Shown here in pieces: positions 1 through 46,164 of a stretch of 64,000 nt of DNA (the first letter of the stretch is position 1; each line of letters starts with the position of its first letter). The notes under the pieces are model-generated. The model saw only the letters and a list, made by a program, of their open reading frames with translations, was not told where the DNA came from and did not search any database. Position numbers and translations under genes: made by a program. This stretch comes from Escherichia coli (lineage in GTDB: Bacteria; Pseudomonadota; Gammaproteobacteria; Enterobacterales; Enterobacteriaceae), in assembly GCF_029227855.1 (NCBI RefSeq), contig NZ_CP074356.1. One strand, given 5' to 3'.

Positions 1-1520
1 AATACGGGTATTACATTCGTTTTCTTATTTATTACCCACGGTGGAGCGACAAATAGCTCCGGCAACATATCCGCAGTGGCGTATTCACATTCTTCAGCGA
101 CTAACTGAGTACGACATTCAGATAAGATGCCTGCCGCTTTAGCATTAACCCAGGGAATGACGTCAGTGACTAAATCTGGCGTGGCGGTAATCAGTTTGAC
201 AAGCGCTTTACGCCACTGTGCATCTTCATGTATTGCCAGTAAAGTTGCATAAGCGGCAAGAGCCGCAGCGGGATGTTTTTGACAGGCTTTGCTTAAGTAT
301 TCCAGGTGCTTTTTCTTGCCAATTACACCGAGGATCAGAATTTGAATCGCATCCGGGTGATTCGTTTTCCATAGCCATTTGACAAGATCTTCAGTCTCGC
401 TGATGCGCTCGAAGAGATAAGTGGGATTGTCAGAATGCTCTTCCGTAAACTCAAGAAGTATCCGGCTTACACCGCGCACCCCATTATTTGCCAGCAACAT
501 TGCCAGATAAGCGCGAAAATCATGATACAACGGTGGGAAGTCGTATTTTTCTGCTGTAGTCAGAGCGGCGTCATCGGTTACCACCAGTCTTAACCAGGTC
601 ATCGCCGGAACGTTTTGATCTGCATAACGTAGCGCCATAGCATTGGCAATATCCGGGCGTTCAGGGAGCAGTAACGCCGCAAAAGGTTGCCGTGCTGGGG
701 ATAGCGAGGGAATAGCAGCGAGAACTTTATCTACACAGCGTTGCCACTCATCTTCTGAAGCGAGTGAAAGATGATGACATAGACGTTGATGCCAGTTCGG
801 TAGTGATTCTGCTTTGAGATCAGGGGGAATAATGGTGGTGACGTCGGCTTTTACTGGTTTATATTTGAGTTGAAGAGCGAGAAGGGCGATTTCAACGGTA
901 GTTTCCAGACCACAGCGAATGACTAAGTCATCGACCAGTTCATCTGTAGAGTAAGAGTTCCATAAATTCCAGAGCAATGCCGCATCAGATTGTATACTTC
1001 CTGTTTGTTGATTATTCAGAATTCGCCTTTGTAACTCGGCAAACGCCAGCTGCCAGTTTTCAGGATAAGAGCGGTAATTATTGTCGGGGTCATATGCCCT
1101 GGTGTTATTCGCGATGCGCTTCCATATTTGGCCATCTTTGTACAGATAATTGATCTCTCTGGGGCGAGAGCGATGAGGAAAAGCAAATCGATTAATATCG
1201 CCAGTTACCGGAATGACTGCATCATCAGCCACCCATGGGCGTTTGTTTTTACTCTCAGGGGAGGTTTCAACTTCAGGAGTGGCTTTGGTGATGGGGGGGA
1301 TATGCACGTTTGCTAAAGCATTTTCCACATAGCCTTTTTTCGTTTTCTCTGCGATCAGCTTAAGCTCCGCTTTTGCCGCTGCCGCAGCATCCGCAAAACT
1401 TTTTACCTGGTTTTGCCCTTTGGTGCCAACTTTTCCCCAACAGATATGCAACTCGTTTCCCTGTTGCTCCACCGCCCAGAATTTATGTGATTTTTCGTCC
1501 TGAAAGATAAAGTGCCTCAT
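1..1520 (-). CDS. molR: MolR-like protein, N-terminal part with WGR-type domain; gene runs off the window start
   Basis: Manual minus-strand translation from the ATG at 1518-1520 gives MRHFIFQDEKSHKFWAVEQQGNELHICWGKVGTKGQ (WGR-like); the same frame is still open at positions 3-59 (..ELFVAPPWVINKKTNVIPV). Not in the ORF track because no stop lies inside the window. Internal frame continuity was not checked codon by codon. Confidence 0.55.
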   Translation of the reverse strand, partial: MRHFIFQDEKSHKFWAVEQQGNELHICWGKVGTKGQNQVKSFADAAAAAKAELKLIAEKTKKGYVENALANVHIPPITKATPEVETSPESKNKRPWVADDAVIPVTGDINRFAFPHRSRPREINYLYKDGQIWKRIANNTRAYDPDNNYRSYPENWQLAFAELQRRILNNQQTGSIQSDAALLWNLWNSYSTDELVDDLVIRCGLETTVEIALLALQLKYKPVKADVTTIIPPDLKAESLPNWHQRLCHHLSLASEDEWQRCVDKVLAAIPSLSPARQPFAALLLPERPDIANAMALRYADQNVPAMTWLRLVVTDDAALTTAEKYDFPPLYHDFRAYLAMLLANNGVRGVSRILLEFTEEHSDNPTYLFERISETEDLVKWLWKTNHPDAIQILILGVIGKKKHLEYLSKACQKHPAAALAAYATLLAIHEDAQWRKALVKLITATPDLVTDVIPWVNAKAAGILSECRTQLVAEECEYATADMLPELFVAPPWVINKKTNVIPV

Positions 1521-1619
1521 TCTGCATCCCTGTAATTTTATCCAGTTGAATGCTGATGCTACCAGTATTTATGCGGGTTAGAGAGAGACAAAATCGCAAG
1601 AAAACAACTTTAGGAATTT

Positions 1620-2330
1620 ATAAATAAATATCCTCCGGCATAGCCGGAGGTTTTTCAAATGCGCCTATAAGGCTCTCTTACCAGCCGCGCCCTAACAGGC
1701 GCACACGATCTGACATTTGCATCCAACTTCGTTACTTACGGCCCGTAAACGGGCTGCCCGGATAGGGAATCGATAACTGCTCTCCCATTTTATCCTCTTC
1801 AAGCTGGTGCTTTATGTAATCCTGTATCTTCGCCGTGTTCTTACCCACCGTATCGACGTAATACCCTCTGCACCAGAACTCCCTGTTCCTGTATTTGAAT
1901 TTCAAATCACCAAACTGCTCGTAAAGCATCAGACTGCTTTTCCCTTTCAGATATCCCATAAAGCCTGATACGCTCATTTTGGGCGGGATCTCCACAAGCA
2001 TATGGATATGATCTGCACAGCATTCAGCTTCCAGAATCCGTACACTTTTCCACTCACACAGCTTTCTCAAAATACAGCCTATTGCTCTACGCTTCTCTCT
2101 GTAGAACACCTGTCTTCGGTATTTTGGCGCAAATACTATGTGATATTTACAGTTCCATCGGGTGTGCGCTAAGCTCTTTTCGTTCCCCATTGGGACCCCC
2201 TTTTGATTTCTTGTTTGACACTTGCAGTTGCCAGACCGCAAGGTGTTTTAACAAATCAAAAGGGGTTTTAATAACTGGCTCAAAGCTGAAAGCTTTCCGG
2301 AACCCCCAGCCTAGCTGGGGGTTTTCTGTG
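1620..2330 (-). mobile_element. IS200 insertion sequence (IS200/IS605 family), ends approximate
   Basis: Carries a 152-aa HuH Y1 transposase gene; perfect palindrome aacccccagcctagctgggggtt at 2301-2323 plus a downstream aaaacccctttt / aaaaggggg pairing upstream of tnpA match the IS200 left-end structures; hairpin cctccggcatagccggagg at 1632-1650 near the other end. Boundaries inferred from the expected ~0.7 kb element size, not from alignment. Confidence 0.7.
1732..2190 (-). CDS. tnpA: IS200 transposase TnpA (HuH single-strand DNA transposase)
   Basis: ORF 1732..2241; start placed at the internal Met (MGNEKSLAHTRWNCKYHIVFAPKYRR..), giving 152 aa; HuH motif HIHMLVEIPP and conserved Tyr-containing C-terminal region. 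Confidence 0.85.
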   Translation of the reverse strand: MGNEKSLAHTRWNCKYHIVFAPKYRRQVFYREKRRAIGCILRKLCEWKSVRILEAECCADHIHMLVEIPPKMSVSGFMGYLKGKSSLMLYEQFGDLKFKYRNREFWCRGYYVDTVGKNTAKIQDYIKHQLEEDKMGEQLSIPYPGSPFTGRK

Positions 2331-2360
2331 CACAAGAAAAGGCGCTGTCGATACAGCGCC
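2331..2360 (-). terminator. Probable rho-independent terminator of metG
   Basis: Stem ggcgctgt/acagcgcc (2341-2360) followed on the minus strand by a T-rich run (complement of cacaagaaaa at 2331-2340), just downstream of the metG stop. Confidence 0.5.
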
Positions 2361-2371
2361 TTGAAAGGAGA

Positions 2372-4405
2372 TTATTTCACCTGATGACCCGGTTTAGCAC
2401 CGGCATCCGGGCTTAGCAGGAAAATATCTTTCCCGCCAGGACCGGCAGCCATCACCATGCCTTCGGAGATACCGAAGCGCATTTTACGTGGTGCCAGGTT
2501 AGCCACCATAATGGTGTGACGACCAATCAGTGCCTGCGGATCCGGGTAAGCAGAACGAATGCCGGAGAAGACATTGCGTTTTTCACCGCCGAGATCCAGC
2601 GTCAGGCGCAGCAGTTTGTCGGAACCTTCAACAAACTCTGCGTTTTCAATCAACGCCACGCGCAGGTCAACTTTGGCGAAGTCGTCAAAGGTGATGGTTT
2701 CCTGAATCGGATCATCTGCCAGTGGGCCAGTTACTGGCGCGGCAGTGGCTTTCACTTCTTCTTTAGAGGCTTCCACCAGTGCTTCAACCTGCTTCATGTC
2801 GATGCGGTTATACAGCGCTTTGAACGGATTCACTTTATGGCCCAACAGCGGTTGCTGGATACCATCCCAGGTCAGTTCCGTATTAAGGAATGCTTCTGCA
2901 CGCTCGGTCAGTTTCGGCAGTACCGGCTTCAGGTAAGTCATCAGCACGCGGAACAGGTTTATGCCCATCGAGCAAATTGCCTGCAGGTCGGCATCGCGGC
3001 CTTCCTGTTTTGCGACTACCCACGGAGCCTGTTCATCGACATAACGGTTAGCAAGATCAGCCAGCGCCATGATTTCGCGGATCGCTTTACCAAATTCGCG
3101 GCTTTCCCACGCTTCACCAATCACTTCAGCGGCATCAGTGAAGGTTTTGTACAGTTGCGGGTCAGCCAGTTCGCTTGCCAGCACACCGTCAAAACGCTTG
3201 TTGATAAAGCCCGCGTTACGGGAGGCCAGGTTAACCACTTTATTCACGATATCGGCATTCACACGCTGAACGAAATCTTCCAGGTTGAGATCGATATCAT
3301 CAATGCGCGAAGAGAGTTTCGCAGTGTAGTAGTAACGCAGGCTGTCGGCGTCAAAATGATTCAGCCAGGTGCTGGCCTTAATAAAGGTACCGCGAGACTT
3401 AGACATCTTCGCGCCGTTCACCGTCACATAGCCATGAACAAACAGGTTAGTCGGCTTGCGGAAGTTGCTGCCTTCCAGCATTGCTGGCCAGAACAGGCTG
3501 TGGAAGTAAACAATATCTTTGCCGATGAAGTGATACAGCTCGGCGGTGGAATCTTTCTTCCAGTATTCATCGAAGCTGGTGGTGTCGCCGCGTTTGTCGC
3601 ACAGATTCTTGAAGGAACCCATGTAGCCAATCGGCGCATCCAGCCAGACGTAGAAATATTTGCCCGGTGCGTTCGGAATTTCAAAACCGAAGTATGGCGC
3701 ATCGCGGGAGATATCCCACTGTTGCAGGCCAGATTCAAACCACTCCTGCATTTTGTTTGCCACTTGCTCCTGCAACGCGCCGCTGCGGGTCCATGCCTGC
3801 AACATTTCGCTGAAAGAGGGCAGATCAAAGAAGAAGTGTTCAGAATCACGCATTACCGGCGTAGCACCAGAAACCACCGATTTAGGCTCGATCAGCTCAG
3901 TCGGGCTGTAGGTCGCGCCACAAACTTCACAGTTATCGCCGTATTGATCCGGGGATTTACATTTCGGGCAGGTGCCTTTTACAAAACGGTCCGGCAGGAA
4001 CATGCCTTTTTCCGGATCGTACAGCTGAGAGATAGTGCGGTTTTTAATAAAACCGTTCTCTTTCAGGCGAGAATAAATAAGTTCTGACAACTGGCGGTTC
4101 TCTTCGCTGTGCGTCGAGTGATAGTTGTCATAGCTGATGTTAAAGCCTGCGAAATCAGTCTGATGCTCCTGACTCATTTCGCCAATCATCTGCTCCGGGG
4201 TGATACCAAGCTGCTGAGCTTTCAGCATGATCGGTGTGCCGTGGGCATCGTCGGCGCAAATGAAGTTGACCTCGTGGCCGCGCATTCGCTGGTAACGGAC
4301 CCAGACATCAGCCTGGATGTGCTCCAGCATATGGCCGAGGTGGATTGAGCCGTTAGCGTACGGCAGTGCGCACGTCACCAGAATTTTCTTCGCGACTTGA
4401 GTCAT
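2372..4405 (-). CDS. metG: Methionine--tRNA ligase
   Basis: 680-aa ORF with class I HLGH (HIGH) and KMSKS motifs; start placed at [12 protein letters not shown] to give 677 aa. Confidence 0.95.
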
Positions 4406-4536
4406 AGTAGGCATTACTTCTTAATAGTGAAAAGGGGTTAGATAGTACCAAATGGGAAAATGTTAAGTAAGTACTTCTCTATATTCTTCAGGTAAACTAT
4501 CAGCTGATGGTTTATCTATACAAAAAAGGAGTCGGG

Positions 4537-11385: not shown

Positions 11386-11413
11386 CCCCCTCTCTTCGAG
11401 GGGGCTTTTTTTT
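11386..11413. terminator. Bidirectional rho-independent terminator between yehA and rcnB
   Basis: Stem ccccctc / gaggggg (11386-11404) flanked by an A-run upstream and a T-run downstream. Confidence 0.5.
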
Positions 11414-11750
11414 AGCGATGATAAAAAATCTCACCGTCGTAGGCTTTAATGATTTTACCGTCGGTGTCGCTGATCAACACGTACGCGCCACCCATATAGG
11501 TCCAGTGTGTCCCGGCATCAGGCGCGGGCAGGTTACGTAACTGCCACTGCTTAATGTTGTACTCATCGGTGCGGTACATCTCTGGGACGGTATCGCCTGG
11601 TTTGAAATGCTTAAAGTCAGCAATGAAACTGCTTAACTCATACTTAGAAATTCCCGAGGTATTGGTCGAACCCGCGGTGGCTGGTGCGGCCCAGGCGGCA
11701 CTGGTAACCAGCAAAAGCACACCCAGCAACATCTTATTTTTAATGGTCAT
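11412..11750 (-). CDS. rcnB: Periplasmic nickel/cobalt homeostasis protein RcnB
   Basis: ORF 11412..11930; start placed at MTIKNKMLLGVLLLVTSAAWA (112 aa, signal peptide); immediately downstream of rcnA. Confidence 0.85.
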   Translation of the reverse strand: MTIKNKMLLGVLLLVTSAAWAAPATAGSTNTSGISKYELSSFIADFKHFKPGDTVPEMYRTDEYNIKQWQLRNLPAPDAGTHWTYMGGAYVLISDTDGKIIKAYDGEIFYHR

Positions 11751-11968: not shown

Positions 11969-12793
11969 TTATCGCATTATGCCCATGAAGCCATGTACGC
12001 CCATATACACACCAACTAAGCCAATCAACAGACTGGAAAAATAGGGAGCGCGTTTAGCGAGAGTGTTAAATCCGCTCCAGCGTTTTGCGACCTGCTGAAC
12101 GCTGATTGCTGCGCCAACGCCTACGGTGACAAGCGTTAACGCCAGGCCGAGGCTGAAACTGACGACCAGTGTTGCGCCCAGTGTCAGGGCTTTCAACTGA
12201 ATGCAAATCAACAGCACGGTAATTGCTGCCGGGCAGGGGATAAGGCCACCGGTTAAGCCAAATAGCAAAATTTGCCAGTTGGTGACCTCTCTACCATCAA
12301 AGCGTCGTTTAATGTCATTGGCATGGGCTCGTGCATGGGCATCCTGATACTCGCCATGTTCGTGATGGTGATGATGTCCATGGTCGTGGTGATCTTCGTG
12401 ATCGTGGTGATGATGCTCATGATCATGCTCGTGCATATTCTCCAGCCAGTTGCGTTCGCCGCGCCAGGTACGCCAGAACATCCAGAACGCGGTGCTAATA
12501 ATGATCACTGCGGAAATCAACTGGAGCCACGGTTCTGCTGATTGAGCAGTAAAGCGTTTGCTGATCACCATCCCGCCAAAGGCAATTAACCAGACCACTG
12601 CGGTATGCGAAATAGTTGCTGCCAGTCCAAGCATCACCGCCTGTTTAATGGTGCCTTTGATGGCGATGATAAACGCCGCCATCATCGTTTTTGAGTGCCC
12701 CGGTTCCAGGCCATGAAGCGCACCAAGTAAGATGGCGCTGGGGATGAAGAACCAGGCGTTTCCTTGCTGAAGAAGTGTTGTAAATTCGGTCAT
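11969..12793 (-). CDS. rcnA: Nickel/cobalt efflux transporter RcnA
   Basis: 274-aa membrane protein with an extremely His-rich loop (HEHDHEHHHHDHEDHHDHGHHHHHEHGE). Confidence 0.9.
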   Translation of the reverse strand: MTEFTTLLQQGNAWFFIPSAILLGALHGLEPGHSKTMMAAFIIAIKGTIKQAVMLGLAATISHTAVVWLIAFGGMVISKRFTAQSAEPWLQLISAVIIISTAFWMFWRTWRGERNWLENMHEHDHEHHHHDHEDHHDHGHHHHHEHGEYQDAHARAHANDIKRRFDGREVTNWQILLFGLTGGLIPCPAAITVLLICIQLKALTLGATLVVSFSLGLALTLVTVGVGAAISVQQVAKRWSGFNTLAKRAPYFSSLLIGLVGVYMGVHGFMGIMR

Positions 12794-12830
12794 GATAATA
12801 ATTCTTAGTATTAATTCGGCAATCTGATTC

Positions 12831-12865
12831 TACTCCCCCCCAGTACCTGATACTACCCCCCAGTA
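12831..12865. promoter_or_regulatory. Tandem RcnR operator motifs (TACT-C/G tract-AGTA) in the rcnA-rcnR divergent promoter region
   Basis: tactcccccccagta at 12831-12845 and tactaccccccagta at 12851-12865; matches the G/C-tract inverted repeat recognised by RcnR. Confidence 0.6.
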
Positions 12866-12913
12866 GATTAATAGTGCTATGATTTTTCATATTCTTGTTA
12901 ACCAGGTGTTGCC

Positions 12914-13186
12914 ATGTCTCATACAATCCGTGATAAACAGAAACTGAAAGCGCGTGCCAGTAAGATTCAGGGCCAGGTCGTGGCGCTCAAGAAAATGCTC
13001 GACGAACCGCATGAATGCGCTGCAGTATTACAACAGATTGCTGCTATCCGTGGCGCGGTAAACGGTCTGATGCGGGAAGTGATTAAAGGCCATCTGACGG
13101 AACACATCGTTCACCAGGGGGATGAGCTAAAACGTGAAGAAGATCTGGATGTCGTTCTGAAGGTGCTGGATTCTTATATCAAATAA
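12914..13186 (+). CDS. rcnR: Ni/Co-responsive transcriptional repressor RcnR (CsoR/RcnR family)
   Basis: 90-aa [24 protein letters not shown]..; divergent from rcnA. Confidence 0.9.
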
Positions 13187-13274: not shown

Positions 13275-13400
13275 CAACCAAACGACTCGGGGTGCCCTTC
13301 TTTGTGAAGGCTGAGAAATACCCGTATCACCTGATCTGGATAATGCCAGCGTAGGGAAGTCACGGACCACCAGGTCATTGCTTCTTCACGTTATGGCAGG
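13275..13400 (+). promoter_or_regulatory. TPP riboswitch (THI element) in the thiM leader
   Basis: Conserved thi-box core ..ggggtgcccttc..gtgaaggctgagaaatacccgtatcacctgatctggataatgccagcgtagggaagtc.. immediately upstream of the thiM start; ends approximate. Confidence 0.8.
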
Positions 13401-45169: not shown

Positions 45170-45310
45170 CGCTGAAACGGGAAAGCCCCTCCCGAGGAAG
45201 GGGCCATAAATAAATAAGGAAAGGGTCATGATGAAGCTACTCATCATCGTGGTGCTCTTAGTCATTAGCTGGCCAGCTTACTAAGACTACCAGGGCGGGG
45301 GAAACCCCGC
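45170..45310 (-). ncRNA. sib: Sib-family antisense sRNA (antitoxin) covering ibs copy 1; ends approximate
   Basis: Sib antitoxins are encoded fully antisense to ibs; minus-strand hairpin gcccctc/gaggggc at 45184-45204 followed by a U-rich stretch could be the 3' end. Confidence 0.5.
45228..45284 (+). CDS. ibs: Ibs-family type I toxin (18 aa, MMKLLIIVVLLVISWPAY)
   Basis: Small hydrophobic ORF preceded by aaggaaagggtc SD; matches the Ibs toxin family pattern. Below the ORF-track length cutoff. Confidence 0.75.
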   Translation: MMKLLIIVVLLVISWPAY

Positions 45311-45497
45311 TCTACCCTCACTCCTGAAAGTATGCCTTCACGATAAGATTGTCAATCTGCAGGCTTTGCAGTCTGCGATCCTGCCAGCAAATATTCTTTG
45401 CGAGACGTTACGCAATAATCACACTGGAAACTATTTTATCCGCAAGTCAGCGATAGACTGCATACAGGGCGAAAGGAGGTAAGCCGACGATTTCAGC

Positions 45498-45638
45498 GGG
45501 ACGCTGAAACGGGAAAGCCCCTCCCGAGGAAGGGGCCTTAAATAAGGAAAGGGTCATGATGAAGATACTCATCATCGTGGTGCTCTTAGTGATTAGCTAC
45601 CCAGCATACTAAGACTACCAGGGCGGGGGAAACCCCGC
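45498..45638 (-). ncRNA. sib: Sib-family antisense sRNA covering ibs copy 2; ends approximate
   Basis: Position inferred by repeat periodicity relative to copy 1. Confidence 0.45.
45556..45612 (+). CDS. ibs: Ibs-family type I toxin (18 aa, MMKILIIVVLLVISYPAY)
   Basis: Second repeat unit; same SD and ORF architecture. Confidence 0.75.
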   Translation: MMKILIIVVLLVISYPAY

Positions 45639-45826
45639 TCTACCCTCACTCCTGAAATTATGCCTTCACGATAAGATTGTCAATCTGCAGGCTTTGCAGT
45701 CTGCGATCCTGCCAGCAAATATTCTTTGCGAGTCGTTACGCAATAATCACAGAGGAAACTATTTTGTTCACGCGTTAGCGATAGACTGCATTCAGGGCGA
45801 AAGGAGGTAAGCCGACGATTTCAGCG

Positions 45827-45967
45827 GGACGCTGAAACGGGAAACCCTCTCCCGGAGAAGAGGGCTTTTAATAAGGAAAGGGTTATGATGAAGCACGTCA
45901 TCATACTGGTGATACTCTTAGTGATTAGCTTCCAGGCTTACTAAGAACACCAGGGGGAGGTGGAAAC
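45827..45967 (-). ncRNA. sib: Sib-family antisense sRNA covering ibs copy 3; ends approximate
   Basis: Position inferred by repeat periodicity. Confidence 0.45.
45885..45944 (+). CDS. ibs: Ibs-family type I toxin (19 aa, MMKHVIILVILLVISFQAY)
   Basis: Third repeat unit; variant C-terminus (FQAY). Confidence 0.7.
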   Translation: MMKHVIILVILLVISFQAY

Positions 45968-46164
45968 CTCTCCCTAACCCTCACTCCTGAAATTATGTCA
46001 CTCCGCCCTTAGTGTCAATCGACGGCTCTCCGTTCTTGCGAGGCGAATAGCAAAATTTTCTGCGCCGCCGGGCCTAATTCTGAAAGTTTCTTCGTTTGCT
46101 CTTATTTCATTATTGCAGTCGGTATGATACCGGACCTCAATAATTCTCTAAGAAAGGATTTCTT

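Follow-up and report, generated by a model that had tools for sequence, protein, structure and literature searches.

The 120-bp gap separating the divergently oriented rcnA and rcnR genes of Escherichia coli holds two near-identical inverted repeats built around a C/G tract, and thereby raises the question of whether these repeats are the sites at which RcnR represses nickel and cobalt efflux. Here, the question was addressed in a stretch of 64,000 nucleotides (hereafter, the window), where the intergenic region, delimited by open reading frames, annotation and its match to K-12, occupies positions 12794-12913 and contains both promoters together with the operator that they share. Our analysis indicates that the two motifs are almost certainly tandem type 1 RcnR operator sites, common to the divergent rcnA-rcnB and rcnR promoters. 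This operator is already known, down to its exact sequence, and the interpretation given to it by the first-pass annotation is correct.

Profile searches identified the genes on both sides of the gap. On the plus strand, rcnR (12914-13186) encodes a CsoR/RcnR-family repressor of 90 aa that responds to Ni(II) and Co(II); it scores 197.3 bits against the NCBIfam equivalog NF011613 (cutoff 138), matches PF02583 (E 3.5e-21) and is identical to the K-12 protein. Its residues H3, C35, H60 and H64 reproduce, at the W-X-Y-Z positions, the H-C-H-H metal-ligand signature of RcnR (PMC11672702), and a RASK motif (PMC3902906) is present at residues 14-17. On the minus strand, rcnA (11969-12793) encodes a 274-aa Ni/Co efflux permease of the NicO family (NF007454, 560.6 bits, cutoff 195; Pfam PF03824, E 3e-69), in which 17 of the 27 residues of a cytoplasmic loop (residues about 120-146) are histidines. 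Downstream of rcnA and on the same strand, rcnB (11412-11750) encodes a periplasmic protein of 112 aa that is accessory to efflux, as indicated by Pfam PF11776 (E 7.7e-19), the RefSeq annotation and a signal-like hydrophobic segment at the N-terminus; the NCBIfam profile search returned no match for this protein. A 172-aa version of rcnB in the mechanical ORF list was rejected as over-extended at its 5' end, the annotated protein having 112 aa. RefSeq names rcnR, rcnA and rcnB as the profiles do, and the circuit described by the first-pass annotation, with the sites lying between divergent rcnA and rcnR genes, a His-rich RcnA loop and a periplasmic RcnB, was thus recovered in each of its parts. 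The surrounding gene order is yehA, rcnB, rcnA, rcnR, a TPP riboswitch, thiM and thiD, the riboswitch (Rfam RF00059, 71 bits; 13278-13374, plus strand) beginning about 90 bp past the rcnR stop codon. As far as a scan of 12600-13100 reached towards the riboswitch, it detected no terminator-like site.

Within the gap, site 1 (TACTCCCCCCCAGTA, 12831-12845) reads TACT-C7-AGTA on the plus strand and TACT-G7-AGTA on the rcnA strand, whereas site 2 (TACTACCCCCCAGTA, 12851-12865) reads TACT-A-C6-AGTA and TACT-G6-T-AGTA, respectively. The two sites differ by a single base (93% identity) and start 20 bp apart, a register set by the 5-bp spacer CCTGA (12846-12850). Direct reading of the sequence placed both sites at exactly the positions assigned to them by the first-pass annotation, and the range that it had given for the promoter region coincides exactly with the interval separating the start codons of rcnA (12793, minus strand) and rcnR (12914). 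Its description of the pair as TACT-C7-AGTA motifs holds for site 1 but not for site 2, whose core is an A followed by C6; it is for this reason that the motif is written TACT-G6-N-AGTA in the literature, a recognition pattern that both sites fit, as had been claimed. In each site, the TACT and AGTA arms stand 7 bp apart with an unbroken run of at least six G (C on the opposite strand) between them, which places both in the type 1 class, and the two lie in tandem inside the divergent rcnA-rcnR gap. A search for TACT-N7-AGTA on both strands of the 64-kb window returned these two matches only, and a search for TACTGGGGGGNAGTA that allowed up to two mismatches led to the same two places only, both on the minus strand with 0 mismatches. 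We also considered a larger inverted repeat (12819-12834 and 12862-12877, 75% complementary) as one palindrome extending over both sites and rejected it; since conservation drops beyond both 15-mers, with the exception of a few adjacent bases, it is a by-product of two adjoining palindromic sites.

The DNA in question is the one on which RcnR binding has been studied. Over the 151 bp that span the gap, the window agrees with E. coli K-12 MG1655 (NC_000913.3) at 151 of 151 positions, the operator included, and the two RcnR proteins agree at all 90 residues. The K-12 operator with its two TACT-G6-N-AGTA sites goes back to Iwig & Chivers (2009, J Mol Biol 393:514) and Blaha et al. (2011, Biochimie 93:434), whose findings on this identical sequence, namely binding by apo-RcnR and release by Ni(II) or Co(II), are taken here as relayed by PMC7055735, PMC3902906 and PMC7105576, each of which cites the 2009 study. 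Among these, PMC7055735 names the motif, cites Blaha et al. (2011) for an operator common to rcnA and rcnR, and cites Iwig & Chivers (2009) for DNA recognition and wrapping. To judge by the citing papers, from which the binding data are drawn, EMSA, footprinting and reporter results on this exact sequence are already published. In PMC3902906, the E. coli operator is further presented as two type 1 sites in tandem, each bound by one tetramer (1:1), with minor-groove contacts at the TACT/AGTA arms and A-form character in the G-tract, and PMC7105576 reuses the two-motif operator as a synthetic cobalt-inducible part and reports dissociation induced by Co or Ni. The locus is therefore the textbook E. 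coli Ni/Co efflux circuit, its operator having been mapped biochemically on identical DNA between 2009 and 2011, and is minor as a discovery; it is nonetheless a small and real cis-regulatory element that can be recognised from raw sequence at exact coordinates.

The operator is also widespread within the species. The 1.8-kb locus was matched in 5369 of 5426 complete E. coli genomes, and of the 5368 matching E. coli records, 5024 show an identity of at least 99% over the 120-bp intergenic region. The window as a whole is E. coli chromosomal DNA and is 99.99% identical to E. coli JNEC-KY178. RcnA shares 270 of its 274 residues with the K-12 protein, the changes relative to K-12 being G122E, Y124H and H134D in the His-rich loop and, outside it, I215L. 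The RcnA polymorphism thus sits in the loop (residues 122-134; window 12355-12430), the rest of the protein being otherwise invariant apart from residue 215.

Across genera, constraint falls on the two sites. The comparative set consisted of 80 loci from an RcnR scan, taken from one genome per species, with Escherichia, Citrobacter, Salmonella, Raoultella, Kosakonia, Rahnella, Hafnia, Erwinia, Edwardsiella, Morganella and one Vibrio among them. Divergent rcnA lies upstream of rcnR in 76 of the 80, with intergenic lengths that cluster at 118-125, 140-143 and 100-102 bp. Both sites occur in the strict 20-bp register, with a 5-bp spacer, in 65 loci. The pattern by which these tandem loci were selected fixed only the TACT and AGTA arms and left the seven central columns free; in these unselected cores, C7 was found at site 1 in 64 of the 65 and AC6 at site 2 in 56. 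Mean information reached 1.99 and 1.93 bits in the two sites, against 0.41-0.54 bits in the flanks of the same loci, where the mean major-allele frequency over 35 bp was 0.52-0.55, so that the sites are clearly more constrained than the neighbouring intergenic DNA. The spacer keeps its length but for the most part not its sequence (AAAAA, TCAAA, CCAAA and others; mean major-allele frequency 0.70). As judged from this alignment, the loci show that the 20-bp register is conserved as strongly as the sites themselves. The 80-locus footprint lends independent support to the published motif.

These figures bear directly on whether the pair could be a chance or neutral 20-bp duplication in AT-rich intergenic DNA that plays no regulatory role. 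The pair does resemble a 20-bp direct repeat, loci with a single site are probably shorter by about one such unit, and dinucleotide-preserving shuffles of the window, which gave a mean of 0.18 TACT-N7-AGTA matches, reached two matches in 2 of 100 cases; yet the shuffles did so without the G/C tract, the adjacency or the rcnA-rcnR location, the cores are near-invariant in 65 loci of many genera while their flanks vary, and published binding studies name these sites (PMC7055735, PMC3902906, PMC7105576), with footprinting also published according to the citing literature. We consequently give a chance origin practically no weight.

The pattern is not without exceptions. Since 15 of the 80 loci deviate from the strict tandem arrangement, two sites are the usual arrangement but not an obligatory one. 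Single-site loci were found in Enterobacter sp. CC120223-11, Erwinia psidii and Edwardsiella anguillarum. Three loci have intergenic regions of 100-102 bp, about one 20-bp unit below the main cluster; these are probably the single-site loci, which suggests the gain or loss of one 20-bp unit. In Morganella, site 1 is an extended palindrome, TATACT-C7-AGTATA, and site 2 is degenerate. In Salmonella enterica subsp. arizonae (TACTCCCCCCTAGTA), site 2 is shortened to a 6-nt core, and Escherichia sp. MOD1-EC7003 has a 21-bp register. Tract length varies as well, with C6 in site 1 of Citrobacter sp. R56 and of E. coli O111:H8 08-4455 and C8 in site 1 of Enterobacter sp. R1, and E. coli SMN152SH1 carries a C-to-A change within the tract of site 2. 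These rare tract variants may have an alternative source in homopolymer sequencing error.

The most drastic exception was found in Escherichia whittamii Sa2BVA5 (positions 1330-1481 of locus L012), where about 150 bp equivalent to window 12762-12913 are absent. The deletion takes away codons 1-11 of rcnA together with the two promoters and the two RcnR sites, and its junction lies between the short direct repeats CCAGGCGTT (window 12753-12761) and CCAGGTGTT (12901-12909). Such a deletion would deprive rcnA of its start codon and rcnR of its promoter. As it was seen in a single genome, it may be specific to the strain or an assembly artefact.

The variation in site number and tract length between species is unlikely to carry functional meaning. 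It is improbable, in our estimate, that site number (one, or two 20 bp apart) and tract length (C6, C7 or C8) represent adaptive tuning of the set-point for Ni/Co de-repression, or slippage-driven switching. Still less credible is the stronger proposal that the C/G tracts are mainly slippage-prone contingency tracts, in which changes between C6, C7 and C8 switch the operator and produce heritable variation in Ni/Co efflux. The C6 and C8 forms of site 1 in E. coli O111:H8, Citrobacter and Enterobacter, and the shortened site 2 of subsp. arizonae, are what this proposal could draw on, but such variants are rare, given the near-uniform intergenic region of E. coli and the almost universal C7 of the tandem loci, differences of a single base in a homopolymer are typical of assembly error, and a run of seven is short for efficient phase variation.

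That the sites serve mainly a different regulator, such as the paralogue FrmR or a different CsoR-family protein, can be set aside with near certainty: RcnR and FrmR are close paralogues that both use G/C-tract operators (PMC11672702), and the regulator of the window does score 76.5 bits on the FrmR model NF008464, but this is below the FrmR cutoff of 133 whereas its RcnR score is well above the RcnR cutoff, it has H-C-H-H rather than the P-C-H-x signature of FrmR (PMC11672702), with Ser at residue 2 followed by His3 and no N-terminal Pro, and the sites occur together with rcnR in at least 76 of the 80 loci.

With RcnR as the cognate regulator, the position of the sites relative to the promoters could be considered. 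Just outside site 1, the bases ATTC have a major-allele frequency of 0.8-0.9, compared with about 0.5 elsewhere in the flank. Joined to the first two bases of site 1, they form the hexamer TAGAAT on the rcnA strand (12832-12827), and this flank conservation points to a candidate -10 element of the rcnA promoter (12827-12832, minus strand) that overlaps the edge of site 1. On the other side, 10 bp downstream of site 2, TGCTATGAT (12875-12883, plus strand) is a candidate extended -10 element of the rcnR promoter; it is moderately conserved, and its cross-genus consensus is TGCTATAAT. Site 2 would then lie within the -35 region of this candidate promoter. If both -10 elements are right, we infer that the two promoters stand back to back with the operator sites occupying the interval between them, and that the sites reach into the -10 element of PrcnA and into the -35 region of PrcnR, a layout that fits the published statement of one operator repressing both genes. 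A simple sigma-70 scan returned two matches, and neither TAGAAT nor the candidate rcnR element was among them. Both of its matches were rejected: from the rcnA -10 at 12800-12795, transcription would begin at or inside the rcnA start codon, and the plus-strand promoter, with a -10 ending at 12927, lies inside rcnR.

The operator works by the mechanism already published for RcnR. Without excess metal, one apo-RcnR tetramer occupies each site, contacting the TACT/AGTA inverted repeats and reading the A-form-like geometry of the continuous G/C tract. As the site starts are 20 bp apart, or about two helical turns, both tetramers lie on approximately the same side of the helix. RcnR is also said to make non-specific contacts with some 50 bp of flanking DNA and to wrap it. 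Placed between and over core elements of both promoters, the tetramers would block RNA polymerase; both rcnA-rcnB and rcnR are kept repressed. As Ni(II) or Co(II) accumulates in the cytoplasm, the metal is bound at H3, C35, H60 and H64 and the affinity for DNA falls; RcnR then dissociates, allowing transcription of rcnA-rcnB for efflux and of rcnR for autoregulation. In this scheme, the sequence, the gene identities, the identity with K-12 and the conservation come from our analysis, the binding, stoichiometry and release come from the literature, and the -10 elements with their overlap are our own proposal.

Several further features were observed elsewhere in the window. Three tandem type I units of Sib antitoxin RNA and Ibs toxin lie at 45213-46018 (Rfam SIB_RNA, 140-149 bits each) and are mutually 83-89% identical; K-12 presumably has two units at this position, sibA and sibB. 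Between trhP (yegQ) and yegP, the segment 31292-33328 carries genes for a 201-aa hypothetical protein (plus strand) and a 466-aa HEAT-repeat protein (minus strand), the latter with a weak PADLOC match to HEAT-ARM_XIII (E 8.7e-7), and this gene pair may constitute a small insert of a variable or defence-related kind. We take K-12 to have no genes between yegQ and yegP and to carry ogrK/yegZ elsewhere in the neighbourhood; ogrK/yegZ is absent from the version of the neighbourhood found in the window. Beside metG, an IS200C transposase gene is inserted together with the Hfq-binding RNA STnc490 (1733-2323, minus strand; Rfam RF01405, 146 bits). The CyaR sRNA (RF00112; 29561-29646, minus strand), which adjoins trhP, and the JUMPstart element (RF01707; 61045-61083, plus strand) upstream of wza-wzb-wzc are both expected for this chromosomal region.

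Structurally, the operator can be placed among the known systems of this regulator family. With E. coli K-12, the window shares gene order and orientation in addition to the sequence of the operator, and the four RcnA residues are the only difference. In Salmonella enterica, the rcnA operator-promoter described by Osman et al. (PMC5709419) likewise has divergent rcnR and rcnA genes and a tandem G/C-tract operator; its RcnR binds DNA with the same stoichiometry of two tetramers per DNA (2:1), and the metalated form binds at least 90-fold more weakly (PMC5709419). Both sites are exactly as in the window in S. enterica subsp. diarizonae, whereas the flanking intergenic sequence has diverged in the species and site 2 has the 6-nt core mentioned above in subsp. 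arizonae.

The same module is also carried by plasmids. In the IncHI2-type rcnR-rcnA module, found in the pco/sil/mcr-9 neighbourhood, both sites and the 20-bp register are identical to those of the window and RcnR is about 92% identical, but the spacer is AAATA in place of CCTGA and the flanks have diverged; the match to the intergenic region amounts to 79% identity over an aligned stretch of 78 bases in which both sites lie. In PLSDB, an RcnR with 90-95% identity is encoded by about 411 plasmids, and on the 314-kb E. coli plasmid p21AR0133A (L003:2087-2895), where the module adjoins pcoS, the rcnA gene is split and carries a pseudogene annotation. Two more distant loci, with RcnR homologues of 58-62% identity, were left out of the footprint statistics. 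On a Ralstonia solanacearum megaplasmid (L004:1935-1955), divergent rcnA and rcnR genes flank a single TATACTCCCCCCTAGTAT site (TATACT-C6-TAGTAT), and on a plasmid of Halomonas sp. HAL1 (L005:1920-1975), two related sites have interrupted tracts (ATACTGCCCCCTAT... and ATACTATCCTCCAGTAT) and an RcnR-like gene is followed by the CDF exporter gene dmeF in place of rcnA.

Finally, the sites can be set against the type 2 operators of CsoR from Streptomyces lividans and Bacillus subtilis, whose regulators likewise belong to PF02583 and whose operators are also G/C-tract pseudopalindromes with (A)GTA dyads and an A-form tract (PMC3902906). Type 2 operators are built from two short G/C tracts 2-4 bases apart, have about 11 bp between their AT-rich arms and accommodate two tetramers per site. 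Neither site of the window has this architecture: each consists of one continuous, unbroken tract of six to seven C with 7 bp between the arms, an arrangement that binds one tetramer per site (PMC3902906).
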